Assembly: GCA_014584465.1 (NCBI GenBank)
Contig: JACTMU010000079.1
Span: 8,065-72,064, forward strand
Reading direction: 5' to 3'
DNA: 64,000 nt
DNA from: Pseudomonadota bacterium
Lineage (GTDB): Bacteria > Bdellovibrionota > Bdellovibrionia > Bdellovibrionales > JACTMU01
The position numbers were made by a program, and so were the translations under genes. Position 1 is the first letter of the stretch. Each line of letters begins with the position of its first letter. Shown one piece after another: positions 3,395-64,000 of the stretch. A model generated the notes under the pieces. The model was not told the DNA's origin, searched no databases, and saw only the letters and a list, made by a program, of their open reading frames with translations.

Positions 3395-3448
3395 CCACCT
3401 TCGAACCCCGATTCGGGTTTTGAACTCATATGCCTTTGATGAGAAAGA

Positions 3449-3463
3449 GCAACTCGAGTGCCA
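3449..3463 (-). promoter_or_regulatory. Sigma-54 (-24/-12) promoter for the TPR / Rossmann-like / GT9 operon
   Basis: The minus strand reads TGGCACTCGAGTTGC, an exact TGGCAC-N5-TTGC match. It sits about 55 nt upstream of the ATG at 3394. Confidence 0.6.
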
Positions 3464-5175: not shown

Positions 5176-5931
5176 ATGCTAAAGAAATTAAAGAGCCTTT
5201 TACAAGGTGGAGAAGAAGAAAAGTCCCAAGACAACTTGACGCACCATGAAGGAGAACGAAATTCTCGAAGAGAGCCTCGAGTTCGCCTTGATGGGGGGCC
5301 GATTCAGTTTCACCGGACAAGTGATGATAAGCCACTTGAAATTTACAATCTATCTGAGTCGGGAATCGGACTTAGCTTTGCACAAATGCAACCTCCCCCA
5401 AAACCAGGTTCTCAACTTGGAGGACGATTTACGATTGCTTCGACTGAGTTCGCCGTTGTTTGTGAAGTGGTCCATGTCACCGACCCCATTGTGGGATGCA
5501 GGCTTCTCAATCGATCCGAGGAGTTGAAGCATGCCATCAAGAAGGCCTTTGAACTCGAACTTAGAGCTCACAATTTGGTCAAAATTCGCCCCGATGTGCT
5601 TGCACCTCGTAGCGATGGAACTCCCTACTATTTTCAAGGATCTCATAAGGAAGAACTCTTCTTTGTCGTTCAAGACAAGAAGATCATCTCATTGAACCTC
5701 ACCTTTGCACCTCACTCCGTTGAGTGGAGTCATGAAAAGGGTTTGAGGGCAGGAAAGATTGTTCAACTTGCGAAACTTCGCGTGACCGATTCGAGCCACT
5801 CCAACCCGATTGACTATTTTGATCCAATTCCAAATGAGCTCTTATCCCAAGCTCGCAATTTCATCAATAACGTTGATTTTCTCTCATTTTCTCATAAGAG
5901 GGATCTTTTTGAGATTTTAAAAAATGTCTAA
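5176..5931 (+). CDS. PilZ domain protein (c-di-GMP receptor)
   Basis: PilZ signature RREPRVRL (RxxxR) followed by YNLSESGIGL (D/NxSxxG). Confidence 0.7.
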   Translation: MLKKLKSLLQGGEEEKSQDNLTHHEGERNSRREPRVRLDGGPIQFHRTSDDKPLEIYNLSESGIGLSFAQMQPPPKPGSQLGGRFTIASTEFAVVCEVVHVTDPIVGCRLLNRSEELKHAIKKAFELELRAHNLVKIRPDVLAPRSDGTPYYFQGSHKEELFFVVQDKKIISLNLTFAPHSVEWSHEKGLRAGKIVQLAKLRVTDSSHSNPIDYFDPIPNELLSQARNFINNVDFLSFSHKRDLFEILKNV

Positions 5932-42058: not shown

Positions 42059-42079
42059 ATTCCCTCCAACCTAGGATAA

Positions 42080-42094
42080 GCAATCCCCGTGCCA
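42080..42094 (-). promoter_or_regulatory. Sigma-54 promoter of the flgF-flgG-flgA-flgH-flgI operon
   Basis: The minus strand reads TGGCACGGGGATTGC, an exact TGGCACG-N4-TTGC match. It lies 22-36 nt upstream of the flgF ATG, with the SD GGAGGGA in between. Confidence 0.65.
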
Positions 42095-57834: not shown

Positions 57835-60800
57835 CTACTTTCCACTTATGGAGTATGCCCACACGGTCACTCCCGATACAACCCCATCTGTGAAGATGCA
57901 GGGCTGAAGAAGAGCTCCTTCACCCTGAAATGAACCCATATTGGGCGCATAGATGCAGGCCTCACCACTTTCGCACAGGGAGTTGTTGTTTCCGATCTGA
58001 TCCCCATTGATTTCGATGGCATGAAGTAAGAATGTCTTTGAAGCCATGGTCGTAGAATCGCTCCCACTCACTCCGTCTGGACAGCTGCTCCCAGAGGTAA
58101 AGGTCGCGTTGGACGCAGTTCCAGTGACACTGCGATTGTGGAGTGGCTTTCCCGTAACCACACGCCAGTCCCAAATGCGACATGTACCCGAGATGCAAGG
58201 ACCTTGATGGGACGAATTTGGAAAAGTTAGCCCATCCATCCCAAACCCCCTAAAAAACGAGTCAAAGTTCATCCAATCCACAATTGAAGCGTAGGAGGAC
58301 GTGCCGGCCGGTGCGCTCCCGTTTGTTGTGTCCGAACTTACCTTGCCTAGAAAAGTTGACGAGAGATCTGTTGCAATCGTTGTGACCGATCCAGAAGCAC
58401 ACGCAGTGTCCAATCCGCCACCACTGCAACCATTTGCAGTGCTTCCTTTGTGAAAGAATCCAGTGAAGCTCACCGACTGACTGCCACTTAGATCCACCGC
58501 AAAGGAGCCGTGATTGGCTGAGACCGTATCATGGAAGACATTGCCGGTACCACCACCGCCTGTGGGCGACTGAATTCCCTTATCCGTGTTCATAGTCACC
58601 AGCGAGTGAACATAGGTCCCATTCACACTCCCCGAAAGGTAGATCCCATTGTAGGTGTTGTTCACGGCCGTCACATATTGGATGATGTTGTCGGTCAACG
58701 ATGTGGTCCCATCGAGGAAAATTCCCGCATCGCTACCCCCAAACAGCGTTGCCTGACTTATGATGTTGCCCGAAGAAGCAATATAAATCGCCGAACTGGC
58801 ATTTGCACTGACTGCAACCTTTATATTTGAGATCGTGAGACCCGAGAGCATGTTGTTGGGGCCTAAGACCTTTAGACCATGGCTCGAACTGCCTGCATTC
58901 ATCTGAGACAGGCGAACCTCTTCCAAACGATTGAAGCTAGAGGAACCCGTGAGCATAAGAAGCGTCTGGCTTATCGAACTTAAATCAGTATTTCTACTCA
59001 CCGAAAAATCGTGCAAGATATTTTTACTGCCTGAAACTCGAGCCCCTCCCATCTTTCCCACACCCTCCGCATTTGATGATGTGATCAGATTCGAGTTGGA
59101 TAAGTAGCCGGTGGTACCCAGTTCAATGGCTGCCATTGAGTTGCTATTGTTCTTGAGATCCTTGATTATGACTTTATGAAGCCGACTGAATTTGGTCCCT
59201 ACGAGATTCATTCCAACCACAAGAGGCCAGGTCCCATTCGTCCCGTTGATCTGCGTTTCCAACCACAAGAAGTTTTGATTGGCCGAACAGATCATCTCTG
59301 CCAGCGCCGAGGAACTCGCGTAACAATCGCCCGATGCAAAGTTGTTGGTCGTCGCACCTGTTGATCGAAGGATCCCACCCCCAAGCGAGACCACTGCAAC
59401 ACGGTGAGCTGAAATCTTAATTCCCAGAGTCGTAAGTCCACCTGGTGGAACGAAGTAGATTGTTCCCGCACTGTTAAGATCGGTAAGACTTGAAGGGTTT
59501 GCTCCGAGAGCGGAGATAGGATTTGTCCACCAACACGTTGGAACACTCTGTCCCACGACGTTTCCACCCTGGTGAATCGTCACGCTGTTCGTCTTCCATG
59601 TGCCTCCACTTGCAATCAGATCGCCAAGTCCAACACCTGGCTTCAAGCCCTTTGAAAAGAAGGTCGCTGTTCCTGAGACATCTTCACAAAACCAATCCAA
59701 CGCATTCAAACTCTCAACCAGTGTGAGACCTGAGCAAGATTCAAAACCTGCCACCTCCACCATACGTTTTTCACCACCATGAATGCAGCCATTGATTTCT
59801 CCATAGTATCCGACCTCGGTCCCATCACAAGAGGCATTGGGTTGTTCGTGAACCTCGCTGTTTGAATCTGTGAATCTTACATAACTATTCCAATCACTAT
59901 TCCCGACATAAACTGGCTCAACCAGAACCGTTACAGGAGCGCTCACCACCAAATCGTGGTTCGCCCCAAGGGAGCCAGCACCCGACACTGCCGGTAAAAT
60001 CAAATTTGCACTGTTGCCAGCATGGTCCACCAGGGTCCCCGAGAGGGCGAGCGAACCCGAAGTCAGGTAATCAAGATCTGAGGAAAATTCCCCCTCTGCG
60101 ATCGTGTATTGAAAAGTGAGTGTACTGGAGCCAGACCCTGAAACGTAGGAGGCAGCTCCTGAAGAGTTGAGTGCCAAGATCATCGATCCACTTAAGGTCA
60201 CATCTTCACTGAAATGCACGTTGATCTCGATGTCATTTCCTGCTCCGTAAGTGCCATCGGAATTGGTCGACGTGACCTGTGTGACGGTCGGTGCTGTGGA
60301 GTCGTAGGTTCTCAACAGCGGATCAGATGCGAGATTTCCATTCCCCGCCAGGTCGACCAACATCGCCTCGGCAACAGAAATGCTCACACTTCCCTCAGAC
60401 GTTGGCGTTACAACTGCCGCAAATGAAGTATGGTCTGTGGTCGTCAGCGAACTCAACGTCCCACCAACCGCAGTGAGGTCACTTAGTGAAAAGCCACTCA
60501 CCTCTTCGGACGCCACAATGGAAATGGCAAAAGACCCATTGACCGCAGAGTCGCTGGTGGAACTCAAAGAGAGAGTGGGGGCCGTCGTATCAAGAACGTA
60601 GATCGCAACCGAAGAGCTGCAGGTTGAACTCCCATGATCGTTGGATTGCCTGCCACTAAAGAGATGAGACCCCTCAGACAACGAGGAGATGTTAAATAGA
60701 ACCGAAGCCCCTGATGCGACTTGCGTGCCGATTTCGGTTTCACATCCACCACCTAGATAGAGGTGGACTGTGTCTCCTTGAGAGACACCATTGACCTGAA

Positions 60801-61827
60801 TCGTAGGACTCACGACGTAATTTGGAGAAGTTGAAGGAGAATAGAGCACCACCGAAGTTGGCGGGGTAGGCGGAGCAGATGCCGTGGGTGGATTGGGATC
60901 AGGTGCCGGAGGTGATGTCTCAGGAATTTCACTCGAATCATCATCAACAATGTCAATCAAAACTGAACTTGTAAGGAGTCGAGAATTGATCGTATTTGAA
61001 AAAACGACACTGAAAGATTCCAAAGCTTCTGCCACGAGGTCATCCACAAGAGAAATTGAGATCTGTTTCAAAGTTTCCCCAGGGGCAAAATCAAGTTGCC
61101 CTGAACCACTCAAGAAATCAGATGAAGCAATGGCGGTTCCATCCACACTCTTCCATCCAATGGATACCACCGACGAACTCACCCGGTCCAGAGCCACACT
61201 TAAAATGACATTTCCAGTTTCACCTGACGGTTGTTCTAAAACAGAAATCGAGACCTGTGGCAACACTTCATGGTCAGAAATGCCAAATTGAAGCCAGTTA
61301 CAGTCATCAAGAATCTTCGAACCCACGATCGACGCCGTAATATCCACAGATTGGTCTGCAGCTCGAACATCCACAGTTGCCTCTCCCACCACCACTGGGG
61401 CCGAGAGATCTGTTCGGTCCATCTTTCCAGGGGCACAACGATAGTTGGCCGAGGTCCCTTGGCCTATAAGCACAATGCGTCGTCGATCCCCTGAAGTGAC
61501 TTCTAAAGAGACTGTCTCCCCTGAGAAATGGGGACCAGAGATCACTTCGGGCTTTAGATGGACAGCACCTTGAATATCCAAACAAGAACCTTTCGAAGCT
61601 TCTGGATACTCAACCGCGACCAGCCAGCAACGAATCTCCTCCATACCTTGAGGCGCAACGACGCCCCACTTTGACTTTGTGGAGGACTGAAGGCGTCGAA
61701 TCTTTTGATCGTTGGTACGAGCAATCTGATCGGGAAGTCGAATGGAAATGGTTGACGAGGTCTCCTTCTTTTGGCAGGAGACAATCCCTACAAACAAAAC
61801 AAGTCCCAATAGAGCGCGTGTCACCAA
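57835..61827 (-). CDS. Giant secreted surface protein: Calx-beta, Ig-like repeats and a beta-helix region
   Basis: 1330 aa with a signal peptide. The Calx-beta-like segment reads SVDGTAIASSDFLSGSGQLDFAPGETLKQISISLVDD. It also has a Pro-rich linker, Ig-like repeats (AGN.N...) and a Ser/Gly/Asn-rich beta-helix-like C-terminal half. Confidence 0.8.
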   Translation of the reverse strand: MVTRALLGLVLFVGIVSCQKKETSSTISIRLPDQIARTNDQKIRRLQSSTKSKWGVVAPQGMEEIRCWLVAVEYPEASKGSCLDIQGAVHLKPEVISGPHFSGETVSLEVTSGDRRRIVLIGQGTSANYRCAPGKMDRTDLSAPVVVGEATVDVRAADQSVDITASIVGSKILDDCNWLQFGISDHEVLPQVSISVLEQPSGETGNVILSVALDRVSSSVVSIGWKSVDGTAIASSDFLSGSGQLDFAPGETLKQISISLVDDLVAEALESFSVVFSNTINSRLLTSSVLIDIVDDDSSEIPETSPPAPDPNPPTASAPPTPPTSVVLYSPSTSPNYVVSPTIQVNGVSQGDTVHLYLGGGCETEIGTQVASGASVLFNISSLSEGSHLFSGRQSNDHGSSTCSSSVAIYVLDTTAPTLSLSSTSDSAVNGSFAISIVASEEVSGFSLSDLTAVGGTLSSLTTTDHTSFAAVVTPTSEGSVSISVAEAMLVDLAGNGNLASDPLLRTYDSTAPTVTQVTSTNSDGTYGAGNDIEINVHFSEDVTLSGSMILALNSSGAASYVSGSGSSTLTFQYTIAEGEFSSDLDYLTSGSLALSGTLVDHAGNSANLILPAVSGAGSLGANHDLVVSAPVTVLVEPVYVGNSDWNSYVRFTDSNSEVHEQPNASCDGTEVGYYGEINGCIHGGEKRMVEVAGFESCSGLTLVESLNALDWFCEDVSGTATFFSKGLKPGVGLGDLIASGGTWKTNSVTIHQGGNVVGQSVPTCWWTNPISALGANPSSLTDLNSAGTIYFVPPGGLTTLGIKISAHRVAVVSLGGGILRSTGATTNNFASGDCYASSSALAEMICSANQNFLWLETQINGTNGTWPLVVGMNLVGTKFSRLHKVIIKDLKNNSNSMAAIELGTTGYLSNSNLITSSNAEGVGKMGGARVSGSKNILHDFSVSRNTDLSSISQTLLMLTGSSSFNRLEEVRLSQMNAGSSSHGLKVLGPNNMLSGLTISNIKVAVSANASSAIYIASSGNIISQATLFGGSDAGIFLDGTTSLTDNIIQYVTAVNNTYNGIYLSGSVNGTYVHSLVTMNTDKGIQSPTGGGGTGNVFHDTVSANHGSFAVDLSGSQSVSFTGFFHKGSTANGCSGGGLDTACASGSVTTIATDLSSTFLGKVSSDTTNGSAPAGTSSYASIVDWMNFDSFFRGFGMDGLTFPNSSHQGPCISGTCRIWDWRVVTGKPLHNRSVTGTASNATFTSGSSCPDGVSGSDSTTMASKTFLLHAIEINGDQIGNNNSLCESGEACIYAPNMGSFQGEGALLQPCIFTDGVVSGVTVWAYSISGK

Positions 61828-62223
61828 ACATTCCCCTTTTCAGTTATCTTCTCTACGTCTTATCGGAAAGTCTTGCGGTTCTGAAGATCACTTGGAAAAA
61901 TATCTTTTGAGAGTTCTCAAAACGTGTCACGACTTGAATCAATCTGACTCAAGGACCCAATCGTTCCTTTTAGGATTCCATCCAACACTCAACTAAACCT
62001 AGAATCGCGCTCCATTCAATCATCCATTCTTGGTTCAAAATTGATGGCCATGTTGTCTCAGAAAGAGAACCCACACAAAGGAAGCATCGGCAAATCCACA
62101 GTAGGCTGGTTTGAAGGTGGTTGGCACCTGGATCCGAAAATCCTCTCTTTGGGAATTCGTCCTAGATTTTGGACCGACGATTCGTAGAAATGTTCTCTAA
62201 ATGGAATTGAGGCGTTAAATTAG

Positions 62224-62239
62224 TGGCACCGTATTTGCT
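62224..62239 (+). promoter_or_regulatory. Sigma-54 (-24/-12) promoter upstream of the heptapeptide ORF
   Basis: TGGCACCGTATTTGCT is an exact TGGCAC-N5-TTGC match. It lies about 50 nt upstream of the ATG at 62288. Confidence 0.6.
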
Positions 62240-62287
62240 TGAAGCTCATCGTTCGTTCAAACCGGGCGACGTTGCTTAGGAGGCACT

Positions 62288-62311
62288 ATGAACTCAACAG
62301 CACGCAATTAG
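62288..62311 (+). CDS. mccA: Microcin C-like heptapeptide precursor, MNSTARN
   Basis: ATG AAC TCA ACA GCA CGC AAT TAG, preceded by AGGAGG (62278..62283, 4-nt spacer). The peptide ends in Asn, as E. coli MccA (MRTGNAN) does. The ORF sits directly upstream of an MccB-like gene and is too short for the ORF track. Confidence 0.7.
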   Translation: MNSTARN

Positions 62312-62317
62312 ATGTAT

Positions 62318-62361
62318 TGGGAGCTTGAGTCCAGCAAAGGATCGATCAAGCTCCCATTTTT
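62318..62361 (+). terminator. Intrinsic terminator / attenuator between the heptapeptide ORF and the mccB-like gene
   Basis: TGGGAGCTTGA-N17-TCAAGCTCCCA forms a perfect 11-bp stem followed by TTTTT. It starts 7 nt after the TAG. Confidence 0.8.
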
Positions 62362-62444
62362 GAGGGACTCTGTTTCCAAAAGAGAAAACTGCAAGACCCA
62401 ACCATGTGGCATTTGCTTGCCAATACCGACGAGGGGGATGATCT

Positions 62445-63518
62445 ATGGATAAGCATAAAGTACTTCAACTGGCCAGGTACGTCCGATCTGGTGTTCAAAA
62501 CGGCATACTCTATTTTGGATTTGGATCCGTTCAACAAGCCATCCGTTGTCCAGAAATGCAACTTCAGGTTGCTGAAGTGGCCAAGCGTTGGGTGACCCCC
62601 TCTACGATCCTAGAGATCCAGAATCATCTGAGTGACTTAGGTGATTCCAAAGATTACAAACCCGCAATCGACTTCTTGATTGAACATGATTTTGTGAAGC
62701 CGGTCGAGTTTTTTGACCAATCTCACAGGTTCAGCCGTAGCCACCTGTTCTATTCAATGTACAAGGGAAACCCTCTTGAAATACAACGAATGATCTCTGA
62801 CAAATCCGTTGCGATCTTAGGATGTGGAGGAATTGGCAATATTGTGAGTGTCAATTTGGCAACCGCTGGGATCAATCGACTCATTCTAGTTGATCACGAC
62901 GAGATCGAGCTTTCGAATTTGTCAAGACAGATATTGTTCGTCGAAGACGACGTGGCAAAGAAAAAGGTGGATGTATTAAGTCATGAGCTAAGACGCCGTA
63001 ATTCTCAATTAGAAATCACCACCCAGTGTTCTCAAATTTCAACTTATGAAGATATTGAAAAGATAGGCCACCCCGACTTGATTGTTCTCAGTGCAGATGC
63101 GGGAGATATCTTCAATATTGTCAACCACTACGCTCTAAAGAACAACATTCCTTATCTTAATGTCGGTTATGTAGAGGATATCGCTGTGTTCGGACCATTT
63201 GTCATTCCAGGAGTGACAGGCTGTATGTTCTGTCAGGATACAACAGCAACAGTTGATGAGAGTGGTCACAATCCACTCACACCCTATCTAAAGCACATCA
63301 ACGAAAGCTATCAAGCCCCGTCCGTTGGGCCCGTCAACATGCTTGCTTCCTCATTAGCCACCTTGGATATTCTAAAGTATTTTGGAAAATTTGGCTCTAT
63401 TCTGTCGCAAAATCGCCGTGTCGGACTTTGGAGTCACGATCTACACTTTGAGTATCAGGATTACCAACGCAATCCAGAATGCAGGCAATGTGGCTTTCTT
63501 AACAATACAACAAGGTAA
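62445..63518 (+). CDS. mccB: MccB-like peptide C-terminal adenylyltransferase (ThiF/MoeB E1-like with an N-terminal peptide-clamp domain)
   Basis: 357 aa. Nucleotide-binding VAILGCGGIGNIVSVNLATAGINRLILVDHDEIELSNLSRQILF. Zinc CxxC pairs GCMFCQ and ECRQCG. YLNVGYVEDIAVFGPF, and an N-terminal extension of about 115 aa that ThiF and MoeB lack. Confidence 0.85.
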   Translation: MDKHKVLQLARYVRSGVQNGILYFGFGSVQQAIRCPEMQLQVAEVAKRWVTPSTILEIQNHLSDLGDSKDYKPAIDFLIEHDFVKPVEFFDQSHRFSRSHLFYSMYKGNPLEIQRMISDKSVAILGCGGIGNIVSVNLATAGINRLILVDHDEIELSNLSRQILFVEDDVAKKKVDVLSHELRRRNSQLEITTQCSQISTYEDIEKIGHPDLIVLSADAGDIFNIVNHYALKNNIPYLNVGYVEDIAVFGPFVIPGVTGCMFCQDTTATVDESGHNPLTPYLKHINESYQAPSVGPVNMLASSLATLDILKYFGKFGSILSQNRRVGLWSHDLHFEYQDYQRNPECRQCGFLNNTTR

Positions 63519-63530
63519 AGGTCGGCGGCA

Positions 63531-64000
63531 ATGAAAACAGTCCATCAGATTGTAAGACGATACTATTGTGTTAGCGCTCTCTTTGAGATGGCGAGAATGG
63601 GAATAGGGGCCACAAGTGTTCTCTTTATGCTCCATCATAATGTTACACTTTCAGATCTTGCATCCATCAAGATGATACAATGCTTTACCATGCTCATCGC
63701 GGAAATGCCTACCGGTCTATTCGCAGATGCATTTGGCCGAAAGAAGAGTATTGTATTGGCAAGTGTTTGCTCGCTACTTTCATTCACAATGTATTTACAA
63801 GCATCTGGATTTTCTGGCTTTTGTATCGCTGACATCTTCAATGCACTTGCGATATCTTTTTGGTCCGGAGCTTTTGATGCTCACGCCATCGAAACACTTG
63901 ACCAAAAGGGAGTCCCTCGGTCATTCTTAAACGTCTTCTTTTCTAGGGTGGCGAGCTATGACGCTGTAGGGGTCATGGTGGGCGGATTCGTTGGAGGCAT
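63531..64000 (+). CDS. MFS transporter, partial (runs off the window). Candidate MccC-like exporter / immunity protein.
   Basis: Manual translation from the ATG at 63531 stays open to the window end: MKTVHQIVRRYYCVSALFEMARMG...MPTGLFADAFGRKKSIVLA (MFS motif A-like), with successive transmembrane segments. Confidence 0.7.
   Translation, partial: MKTVHQIVRRYYCVSALFEMARMGIGATSVLFMLHHNVTLSDLASIKMIQCFTMLIAEMPTGLFADAFGRKKSIVLASVCSLLSFTMYLQASGFSGFCIADIFNALAISFWSGAFDAHAIETLDQKGVPRSFLNVFFSRVASYDAVGVMVGGFVGG

Follow-up and report, generated by a model that had tools for sequence, protein, structure and literature searches.

A minimal microcin C-type operon on a Bdellovibrionota chromosome, with a probable intrinsic terminator between its seven-codon precursor gene and mccB

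The stretch of Bdellovibrionota DNA analyzed here (64,000 nucleotides (nt) of contig JACTMU010000079.1, called the window below) carries a microcin C-type (mcc) gene cluster close to its right end. A seven-codon open reading frame (ORF) is followed by a homologue of the enzyme gene mccB and by the beginning of an exporter gene, and a stem-loop with an adjoining run of T residues is located between the ORF and mccB. The features are listed below, and all of them are on the plus strand.

62224-62239, plus strand: predicted sigma-54-type -24/-12 promoter TGGCACcgtatTTGCT, with GG at 62225-6, GC at 62237-8, and a predicted transcription start at ~62250
62250-62271, plus strand: predicted 5'-terminal stem-loop of the short transcript, CGUUCGUUCAAACCGGGCGACG, from folding of 62250-62361 and dependent on the predicted start
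62279-62284, plus strand: Shine-Dalgarno (SD) sequence AGGAGG of the seven-codon ORF
62288-62311, plus strand: mccA-like precursor gene, seven codons and TAG, peptide MNSTARN
62318-62356, plus strand: terminator hairpin, an 11-bp perfect stem (62318-28 with 62346-56) and 4 inner pairs
62357-62361, plus strand: U-tract of five, predicted 3' end of a transcript of ~110 nt
62431-62438, plus strand: SD of mccB, GAGGGGGA
62445-63518, plus strand: mccB homologue, 357 amino acids (aa)
63531-64000, plus strand: mccC-like MFS exporter, N-terminal 156 aa, cut by the end of the window

The seven-codon ORF begins with the ATG at 62288 and ends with the TAG at 62309-62311. Its SD is located 3 nt (62285-62287) ahead of the ATG, and a comparably strong SD is present in all relatives and in E. 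coli. The ORF ends with Asn, has a strong SD of its own, and lies upstream of mccB, as is expected of an mcc cluster. The mccB homologue encodes a ThiF-like peptide adenylyltransferase with an N-terminal peptide-clamp region. It was aligned over its full length with the E. coli MccB structure 3h5n in the PDB (residues 9-350 on 8-350, E 6.5e-75), whereas other ThiF/E1 families in the PDB (PaaA, ThiF) were matched at ~1e-14 and over the Rossmann core only. The Pfam ThiF model matched the same product with E 4.5e-38, and the identity to MccB of the E. coli plasmid MccC7-H22 is 38.5%. An alignment of 37 homologues shows no variation in the nucleotide loop GCGGIG (G126-G131) or in the zinc cysteines C260, C263, C346, and C349. 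The exporter fragment was matched by MFS_1 (E 1.6e-4) and by an HP1165-family MFS model. The MFS_1 match misses the Pfam cut-off because the fragment is truncated by the window end. Full-length MFS genes are located 3' of mccB in E. coli and at the loci L001, L002, and L165-L167 of the comparison given below. With an Asn-ending seven-codon ORF, an MccB homologue of full length, and an MFS exporter, the locus qualifies as a genuine minimal mccABC-type cluster, and the mcc-type identity proposed in the original prediction is upheld. The likely product of the cluster is a peptide-nucleotide antibiotic, fMNSTAR-isoAsn-nucleotide. Members of this class, in which Asn is converted to an isoAsn-N-P-nucleotide, inhibit AspRS.

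The region of the ORF, the hairpin, and the T-run was read over 62270-62370 (ttAGGAGGcactATGAACTCAACAGCACGCAATTAGatgtatTGGGAGCTTGAgtccagcaaaggatcgaTCAAGCTCCCAtttttgaggg). The left arm TGGGAGCTTGA (62318-62328) and the right arm TCAAGCTCCCA (62346-62356) are 11 nt each, 100% complementary, and separated by a gap of 17 nt, as reported by the repeat finder. The TAG stop codon and the stem are separated by a spacer of 6 nt (ATGTAT), and the first stem base is the seventh nucleotide past the stop. TTTTT at 62357-62361 abuts the right arm, and the next base is G (GAGGG follows). The original prediction had described a perfect 11-bp stem followed by TTTTT, beginning 7 nt past the heptapeptide stop codon and placed between the peptide ORF (62288-62311) and the enzyme gene (62445-63518). 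All of these points were reproduced when the arms and the T-run were re-read.

RNA folding of 62312-62365 resulted in the 11-bp stem plus the 4 inner pairs at -23.4 kcal/mol (z = -4.9), a stability equaled by no dinucleotide shuffle out of 200. Similarly, the 60 nt past the mccA stop gave z = -3.35 in a dinucleotide-shuffle comparison. All 177 runs of five T on both strands of the window were then ranked by the best hairpin ending no more than 2 nt from the run. The hairpin studied here was the most stable of the 177, with -22.6 kcal/mol compared with -17.2 kcal/mol for the runner-up. When the full-length predicted RNA (62250-62361) was folded, the terminator paired at a probability of ~1. The built-in terminator scan missed the hairpin because that scan has a loop limit of 3-8 nt. 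These data show that the hairpin is real and highly non-random.

The element is one-way. On the minus strand the sequence past the hairpin is AATACAT, with no T-run. The upstream gene is transcribed divergently from the minus strand, and the two downstream genes lie on the plus strand. Given also the lack of a minus-strand T-run, only an RNA with its start in 61828-62317 can end at the hairpin. Such an RNA must begin in the 460-nt divergent intergenic region and carry the seven-codon ORF. A terminator of the neighboring gene was rejected on the same grounds. A dispersed repeat resembling repetitive extragenic palindromes was also rejected, because no second copy of the arm sequence is present anywhere in the 64-kb window. 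No Rfam family was found at the hairpin; the sole match was a sub-threshold plant microRNA model on the wrong strand.

The mcc-like loci used for comparison were gathered via look-ups of the encoding contigs and via genome and metagenome scans, and the 500 nt upstream of each full-length mccB homologue was examined. A genome scan with the single MccB of the window returned no relatives; the scan with an alignment found them. The nearest MccB relatives are only 60%, 51%, 51%, and 47% identical. At this level of identity (47-60%) the intergenic DNA is not alignable and covariation analysis is impossible, and it is the position of the elements that can be compared. Sixteen loci, the window locus and 15 others, were analyzed in detail. 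They span at least six phyla and come from an Oligoflexales metagenome-assembled genome (MAG), Parachlamydiaceae, Anoxychlamydiales, Legionellaceae, Halarcobacter, Dietzia, Entomospira, an E. coli-type contig, and several metagenome contigs. At 16 of 16 loci, an SD and an Asn-ending ORF of seven codons (once eight) were found, with a hairpin (-14 to -40 kcal/mol) located between the ORF and mccB. The peptides at the other loci include MNASVKN, MNASLKN, MNGFSSN, MNSVVRN, MNTVVKN, MNVPTKN, MNTISKN, MRKYVHN, and MRTGNAN, and all end with Asn.

The hairpin sequences are unrelated between the loci, and their position is conserved. The mean z value for the 60 nt past the stop was -4.3 against dinucleotide shuffles, compared with -0.46 for the control region upstream of the SD of the same loci. 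At 11 of the 16 loci the core stem begins ~0-11 nt past the stop; the distance is ~16 nt in L001, 25 nt in E. coli, and ~42 nt in L164. The spacing of 7 nt seen in the window is thus not a feature of the family, in which it ranges over ~0-42 nt. The median distance from the stop codon is ~8 nt, although the mccA-mccB spacers measure 44-198 nt. As a positive control, the procedure recovered the experimentally mapped E. coli terminator (L086; L169 = NC_010257.1). At several relatives, genes for an MccE-like acetyltransferase and an MccF-like S66 peptidase follow, which confirms these relatives as genuine mcc clusters. The conserved position of the hairpin at all 16 loci supports the earlier view that the layout marks the seven-codon ORF as a real gene.

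Six loci (L005, L009, and L011 of Nocardiopsis, and L017, L018, and L088) had no Asn-ending ORF and were left out of the 16-locus statistics. For Nocardiopsis, ORFs of 4-12 residues were searched in the 500 nt upstream. The three Nocardiopsis loci encode full-length MccB homologues of ~42% identity, and they may use longer precursors or another arrangement.

Four of the closer relatives, L164, L001, L002 (the Oligoflexales MAG), and L006, are uncharacterized mcc-like loci from metagenomes and MAGs. Their MccB proteins are 44-60% identical to the window MccB, and like the window they have MN...N peptides (MNASVKN, MNASLKN, MNGFSSN, and MNSVVRN), a TGGCAY-N5-KTGC element, and a hairpin past the stop. 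The hairpin sequences, the spacers (~7 to 42 nt), and the U-tracts all differ from those of the window. In L164, the closest relative (60% identity, peptide MNASVKN), three tandem copies of TTTTCAGTGACCAG are located at 229-270 between the mccA stop and the hairpin, and the hairpin has an unusually large loop (GGCGTCGG, ~35 nt, CCGACGCC).

A close known counterpart is the E. coli mccA-mccB hairpin, an intrinsic terminator that gives rise to an abundant and very stable mccA RNA of 105-107 nt (Zukher 2014, PMC4231749). Termination in vivo is ~65%, and the terminator is masked by the RNA at +30 to +60 (SD and ORF) and unmasked by a ribosome bound at the SD, without any need for translation (PMC4231749). 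Ribosome-induced termination was also observed in vitro for the unrelated H. pylori sequence, and terminator-like sequences are reported in all mcc-like operons (PMC4231749). A 2021 review describes the terminator as "commonly found" and the minimal cluster as mccABC (PMC8323819).

The window locus is similar to E. coli pMccC7/MccC7-H22 in its AGGAGG, its Asn-ending ORF of seven codons, its GC-rich sense-strand hairpin of ~10-11 bp, its mccB, and its MFS exporter. The short transcript is also similar, since the predicted terminated RNA 62250-62361 has ~110 nt. The two loci differ in several respects. Only 6 nt separate the stop from the stem here, compared with 25 nt in E. coli, in which this interval is taken up by a second, upstream hairpin. 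The window has a clean U5 as its tail and E. coli has UACAAAAUUUAU, and mccA and mccB are 133 nt apart here but 74 nt apart in E. coli. The promoter is predicted to be of the sigma-54 type here, while that of E. coli mcc is sigma-S/CRP-dependent (PMC8323819). The locus is chromosomal in a Bdellovibrionota bacterium instead of being on an enterobacterial plasmid, its MccB is only 38.5% identical, and no mccD, mccE, or mccF is visible in the window, which ends inside mccC. The mccABC cluster of H. pylori pHPG27 is likewise minimal, with three genes and a terminator hairpin between mccA and mccB; unlike the window locus, it is plasmid-borne and has an 84-bp spacer. H. pylori and E. coli have the same architecture without sequence conservation. 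In E. coli the ribosome dependence was demonstrated experimentally and in H. pylori ribosome-induced termination was shown in vitro. The original prediction had proposed an E. coli-like layout, and the layout agrees with the published architecture of both E. coli and H. pylori (PMC4231749, PMC8323819).

Two side observations concern annotation. In the RefSeq record of the E. coli plasmid NC_010257.1 (L169, 1392-1490), the seven-codon mccA is unannotated. The mccB coding sequence of that record starts at 1414, atop the mccA stop and across the terminator hairpin, while the published spacer of 74 nt corresponds to an ATG at 1490.

The anatomy, the enzyme homology, and the positional conservation of unrelated hairpins at all loci analyzed in detail are seen directly. 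Partial termination, an abundant and stable short RNA, and promotion of the hairpin by a ribosome bound at the SD or start are taken by analogy with E. coli and H. pylori. Taken together, these data make it highly probable that the hairpin and the T-run at 62318-62361 form the intrinsic terminator of a minimal microcin C-type operon (mccA-mccB-mccC) on a Bdellovibrionota chromosome. In the proposed mechanism, RNA polymerase would start from the sigma-54-type promoter (~62250) and transcribe the strong ribosome-binding site and the seven-codon mccA. A large fraction of the polymerases would stop at the terminator and release a compact RNA of ~110 nt encoding only MNSTARN. The remaining polymerases would read into mccB, whose product would add a nucleotide to the C-terminal Asn, and into mccC, the exporter gene. 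The outcome would be a large excess of the substrate message over the enzyme message. The 3' hairpin may also shield the short RNA from decay, and the predicted 5'-terminal stem-loop CGUUCGUUCAAACCGGGCGACG (the first 22 nt if the start is ~62250) could add to the stability of this transcript. By analogy with E. coli, a ribosome bound at the mccA SD or start codon would promote the formation of the hairpin.

The predicted sigma-54-type promoter, TGGCACCGTATTTGCT at 62224-62239, matches TGGCAC-N5-TTGCW at 11 of 11 positions, is located 49 nt upstream of the ATG, and is intergenic and gene-facing. The pattern TGGCAY-N5-KTGCW was found three times in the window compared with 0.25 expected matches, and every match is just upstream of a gene and faces it. 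The second is at 42079-42094 (minus strand), 21 nt upstream of the flgF/flgG-flgA-flgH-flgI operon (start 42058), and the third is at 3448-3463 (minus strand), 54 nt upstream of a TPR-repeat gene (start 3394). Upstream of mccA in L164 (~150-165), L001 (~5862-5877), L002 (~5858-5873), and L006 (~368-383), no block is conserved except this element (TGGCAY-N5-KTGC), which has the same spacing there. At the remaining loci, sigma-70-like -35/-10 boxes are located upstream of mccA instead. A sigma-70-like site was looked for upstream of the window mccA and none was found. Transcription most likely starts at the sigma-54-type promoter, with a predicted start at ~62250. No convincing dyad that could serve as an upstream activating site was found upstream of the element. 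A literature search for microcin C with sigma-54/RpoN returned nothing relevant; in those hits "mccA" denotes methylcrotonyl-CoA carboxylase. Both the sigma-54-type promoter and the very short distance from stop to stem are details specific to the lineage.

Another sigma-54-like sequence is present at 62407-62420 (plus strand), 25 nt before the mccB ATG. It reads TGGCAT-N4-TTGC, with the spacing one base short, and is probably non-functional. If active, it would provide an mccB start independent of the terminator.

Several observations weigh against the proposed mechanism of the operon. The U-tract is short, with just five U before GAGGG, which would be compatible with partial read-through. 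At L006, L015, and L002 the hairpin has little or no U-tract, and there it may act differently. The start and the 3' end of the RNA, like the efficiency of termination, are predicted. No Sigma54_activat domain (the enhancer-binding AAA+ activator) was found in the screened ORFs of the window, which comprised most ORFs of at least 300 aa and several smaller ones; the activator may be encoded elsewhere. Finally, masking of the E. coli kind was examined by comparing the duplex energy of the SD-ORF segment with the left arm to 500 shuffles at the 16 loci. The energy was no better than that of the shuffles (z -0.47 at the window, mean +0.26 over the 16 loci), and this test has low power, being blind to the proven E. 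coli case (L086, z -0.01), so that its outcome is no argument against coupling.

These results bear on the coupling to ribosomes. When the nascent RNA was folded from the predicted start to just before the right arm, the ORF (62289-62306) paired with the left arm (62318-62333). This pairing would amount to a masking of the E. coli kind, which a ribosome on the ORF would prevent. Coupling to ribosomes at the window locus is plausible by analogy. The form of coupling in the original prediction is not supported: it had been tied to ribosomes translating mccA, whereas the E. coli effect comes from a ribosome sitting at the mccA SD or start, which relieves the inhibition by upstream RNA. Translation is not needed there, and the effect does not work through contact between a terminating ribosome and the hairpin (PMC4231749). 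The tiny translated ORF followed by an intrinsic terminator upstream of enzyme genes also resembles the trp, his, and pheA attenuators. In those systems the leader is a sensor with runs of regulatory codons and with defined antiterminator and terminator helices. At the window locus the peptide is the product and the substrate of the next enzyme, no repeated codons are present, and the conservation of the C-terminal Asn reflects its part in the substrate. The 16-locus shuffle test, which is blind to E. coli, gave no significant alternative helix.

A plain intrinsic terminator without ribosome dependence should be weighed as well. The hairpin would form by itself, terminate partially, and set a fixed mccA:mccB ratio without any input from translation. 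The hairpin is very stable, with a pair probability of ~1.0 in the full transcript, the pairing of the ORF with the left arm is no better than chance, and the ~-23 kcal/mol of the hairpin exceeds the ~-6 kcal/mol gained by the alternative fold. However, the E. coli and H. pylori terminators, which are unrelated in sequence, were silent without ribosomes in the experiments, and a strong SD is conserved at all loci. The shuffle result also counts for little, since it misses the known E. coli effect. We consider the plain terminator a possible explanation, though a less probable one than not.

Toeprints place the leading edge of the ribosome 17 nt from the first base of the P-site codon (PMC4231749). 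When the P site holds AAT (62306), this edge falls at ~62322, and the ribosome covers 62318-62322, where the stem has its first 4-5 bases. On the start codon the ribosome extends only to ~62304, and the stem stays unobstructed. At the stop codon it would have to open the lowest 4-5 bp, which adjoin the U-tract and are needed for termination, so less termination is predicted, not more. The original prediction had noted that a terminating ribosome would contact the hairpin base; such a ribosome would occupy 62318-62322 and should oppose termination. In a more elaborate proposal, the mcc operon, which encodes a "Trojan horse" antibiotic of the microcin C type, would have been rewired to sigma-54 in this lineage and four of its closer relatives, and the terminator 6 nt past the stop would have two states. 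Termination would be possible while a ribosome occupies the start codon, whereas a ribosome on the stop codon would open the base of the stem and let polymerase continue into mccB. Because a sigma-54 promoter stays silent until it is activated, an enhancer-binding activator would exert strict on-off control over production, for example in predation or competition. As a whole, this combined proposal is doubtful.

The switch of opposite sign can also be considered by itself, with a ribosome on the last sense or stop codon covering 62318-62322, so that translation allows mccB read-through. The toeprint geometry, which puts the ribosome edge within the stem, agrees with such a switch, as does the start of the core stem within 11 nt of the stop at 11 of the 16 loci. 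The overlap is not universal, given the spacings of 25 nt in E. coli, ~16 nt in L001, and ~42 nt in L164. The distance from the emergence of the SD to the U-tract is ~60 nt, and at typical E. coli rates the first ribosome is unlikely to be at the stop codon in time. The E. coli effect, moreover, did not need translation. This explanation is thus improbable.

We give similarly little weight to the idea that the hairpin is mainly an element of RNA stability or ribosome recycling, either a barrier to exonucleases after processing or a roadblock that returns post-termination ribosomes to the AUG, which lies 21 nt upstream. Reiterative translation, with ~71 rounds per binding, has been shown for seven-codon mccA messages (Zukher 2019, PMC6495379), and the short E. 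coli RNA is exceptionally stable (PMC4231749). The hairpins of L006 and L015 without a U-tract and the closeness of the hairpins to the stop (median ~8 nt) despite spacers of 44-198 nt point in the same direction. Against this stands the window hairpin itself, which runs straight into T5, as is characteristic of intrinsic terminators. In E. coli the element also terminates alone in a galK reporter and in one orientation only (PMC4231749). The stability or recycling role and the terminator role are not mutually exclusive.

A palindrome arisen by chance, or an operator bound by a protein and without any bearing on RNA structure, is hardly credible: perfect 11-bp arms could in principle bind a dimeric regulator, but the hairpin ranks first of 177 beside T-runs with no shuffle equal to it, the 17-nt gap between the arms is unusual for an operator, and hairpins of unrelated sequence at the same position of 16 of 16 loci indicate a structural constraint and no sequence-specific site.

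Other features surround the cluster. An ATG that touches the mccA stop (TAGATG) opens an ORF of 46 aa at 62312-62452 (plus strand), which runs through the hairpin and overlaps the mccB start. This ORF is probably spurious, since it has no SD of its own and is not seen in relatives. In E. coli mccA, however, out-of-frame AUGs occur at which ribosomes can sit. The nearest upstream gene, 57835-61827 (minus strand), is divergent and encodes a secreted or surface protein of 1330 aa with Calx-beta and Big_12 (Ig-like) domains; no functional link between this gene and the mcc cluster is evident. The divergent intergenic region contains a perfect palindrome, TTTTGAGAgtTCTCAAAA, at 61905-61922, ~80-95 nt from the start of the surface-protein gene and ~300 nt upstream of the mccA promoter. 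The palindrome could be a binding site for a regulator. The rest of the window is ordinary chromosome, with flagellar rod, ring, and hook-associated genes, flagellins, pilMNOPQ, trehalose synthesis, and radA. The best named relatives of the RadA protein belong to Bdellovibrionales and Bdellovibrio, with 60-65% identity, which places the host among the poorly sampled Bdellovibrionota.

The architecture described here is already known, and the window adds a further example, in Bdellovibrionota. The known picture of how mcc operons work is left unchanged by these findings. The mccA-hairpin-mccB layout appears near-universal across the compared sequences and would provide far more substrate message than enzyme message, and the evidence for it is extended here. 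A seven-codon gene of the kind that gene callers leave unannotated is validated, and a likely peptide-nucleotide antibiotic is pointed out in a little-sampled Bdellovibrionota bacterium. If the sigma-54 promoter is real, it would represent a regulatory input that is undescribed for mcc operons in the searched literature, and it would offer a handle on the inducing signal.

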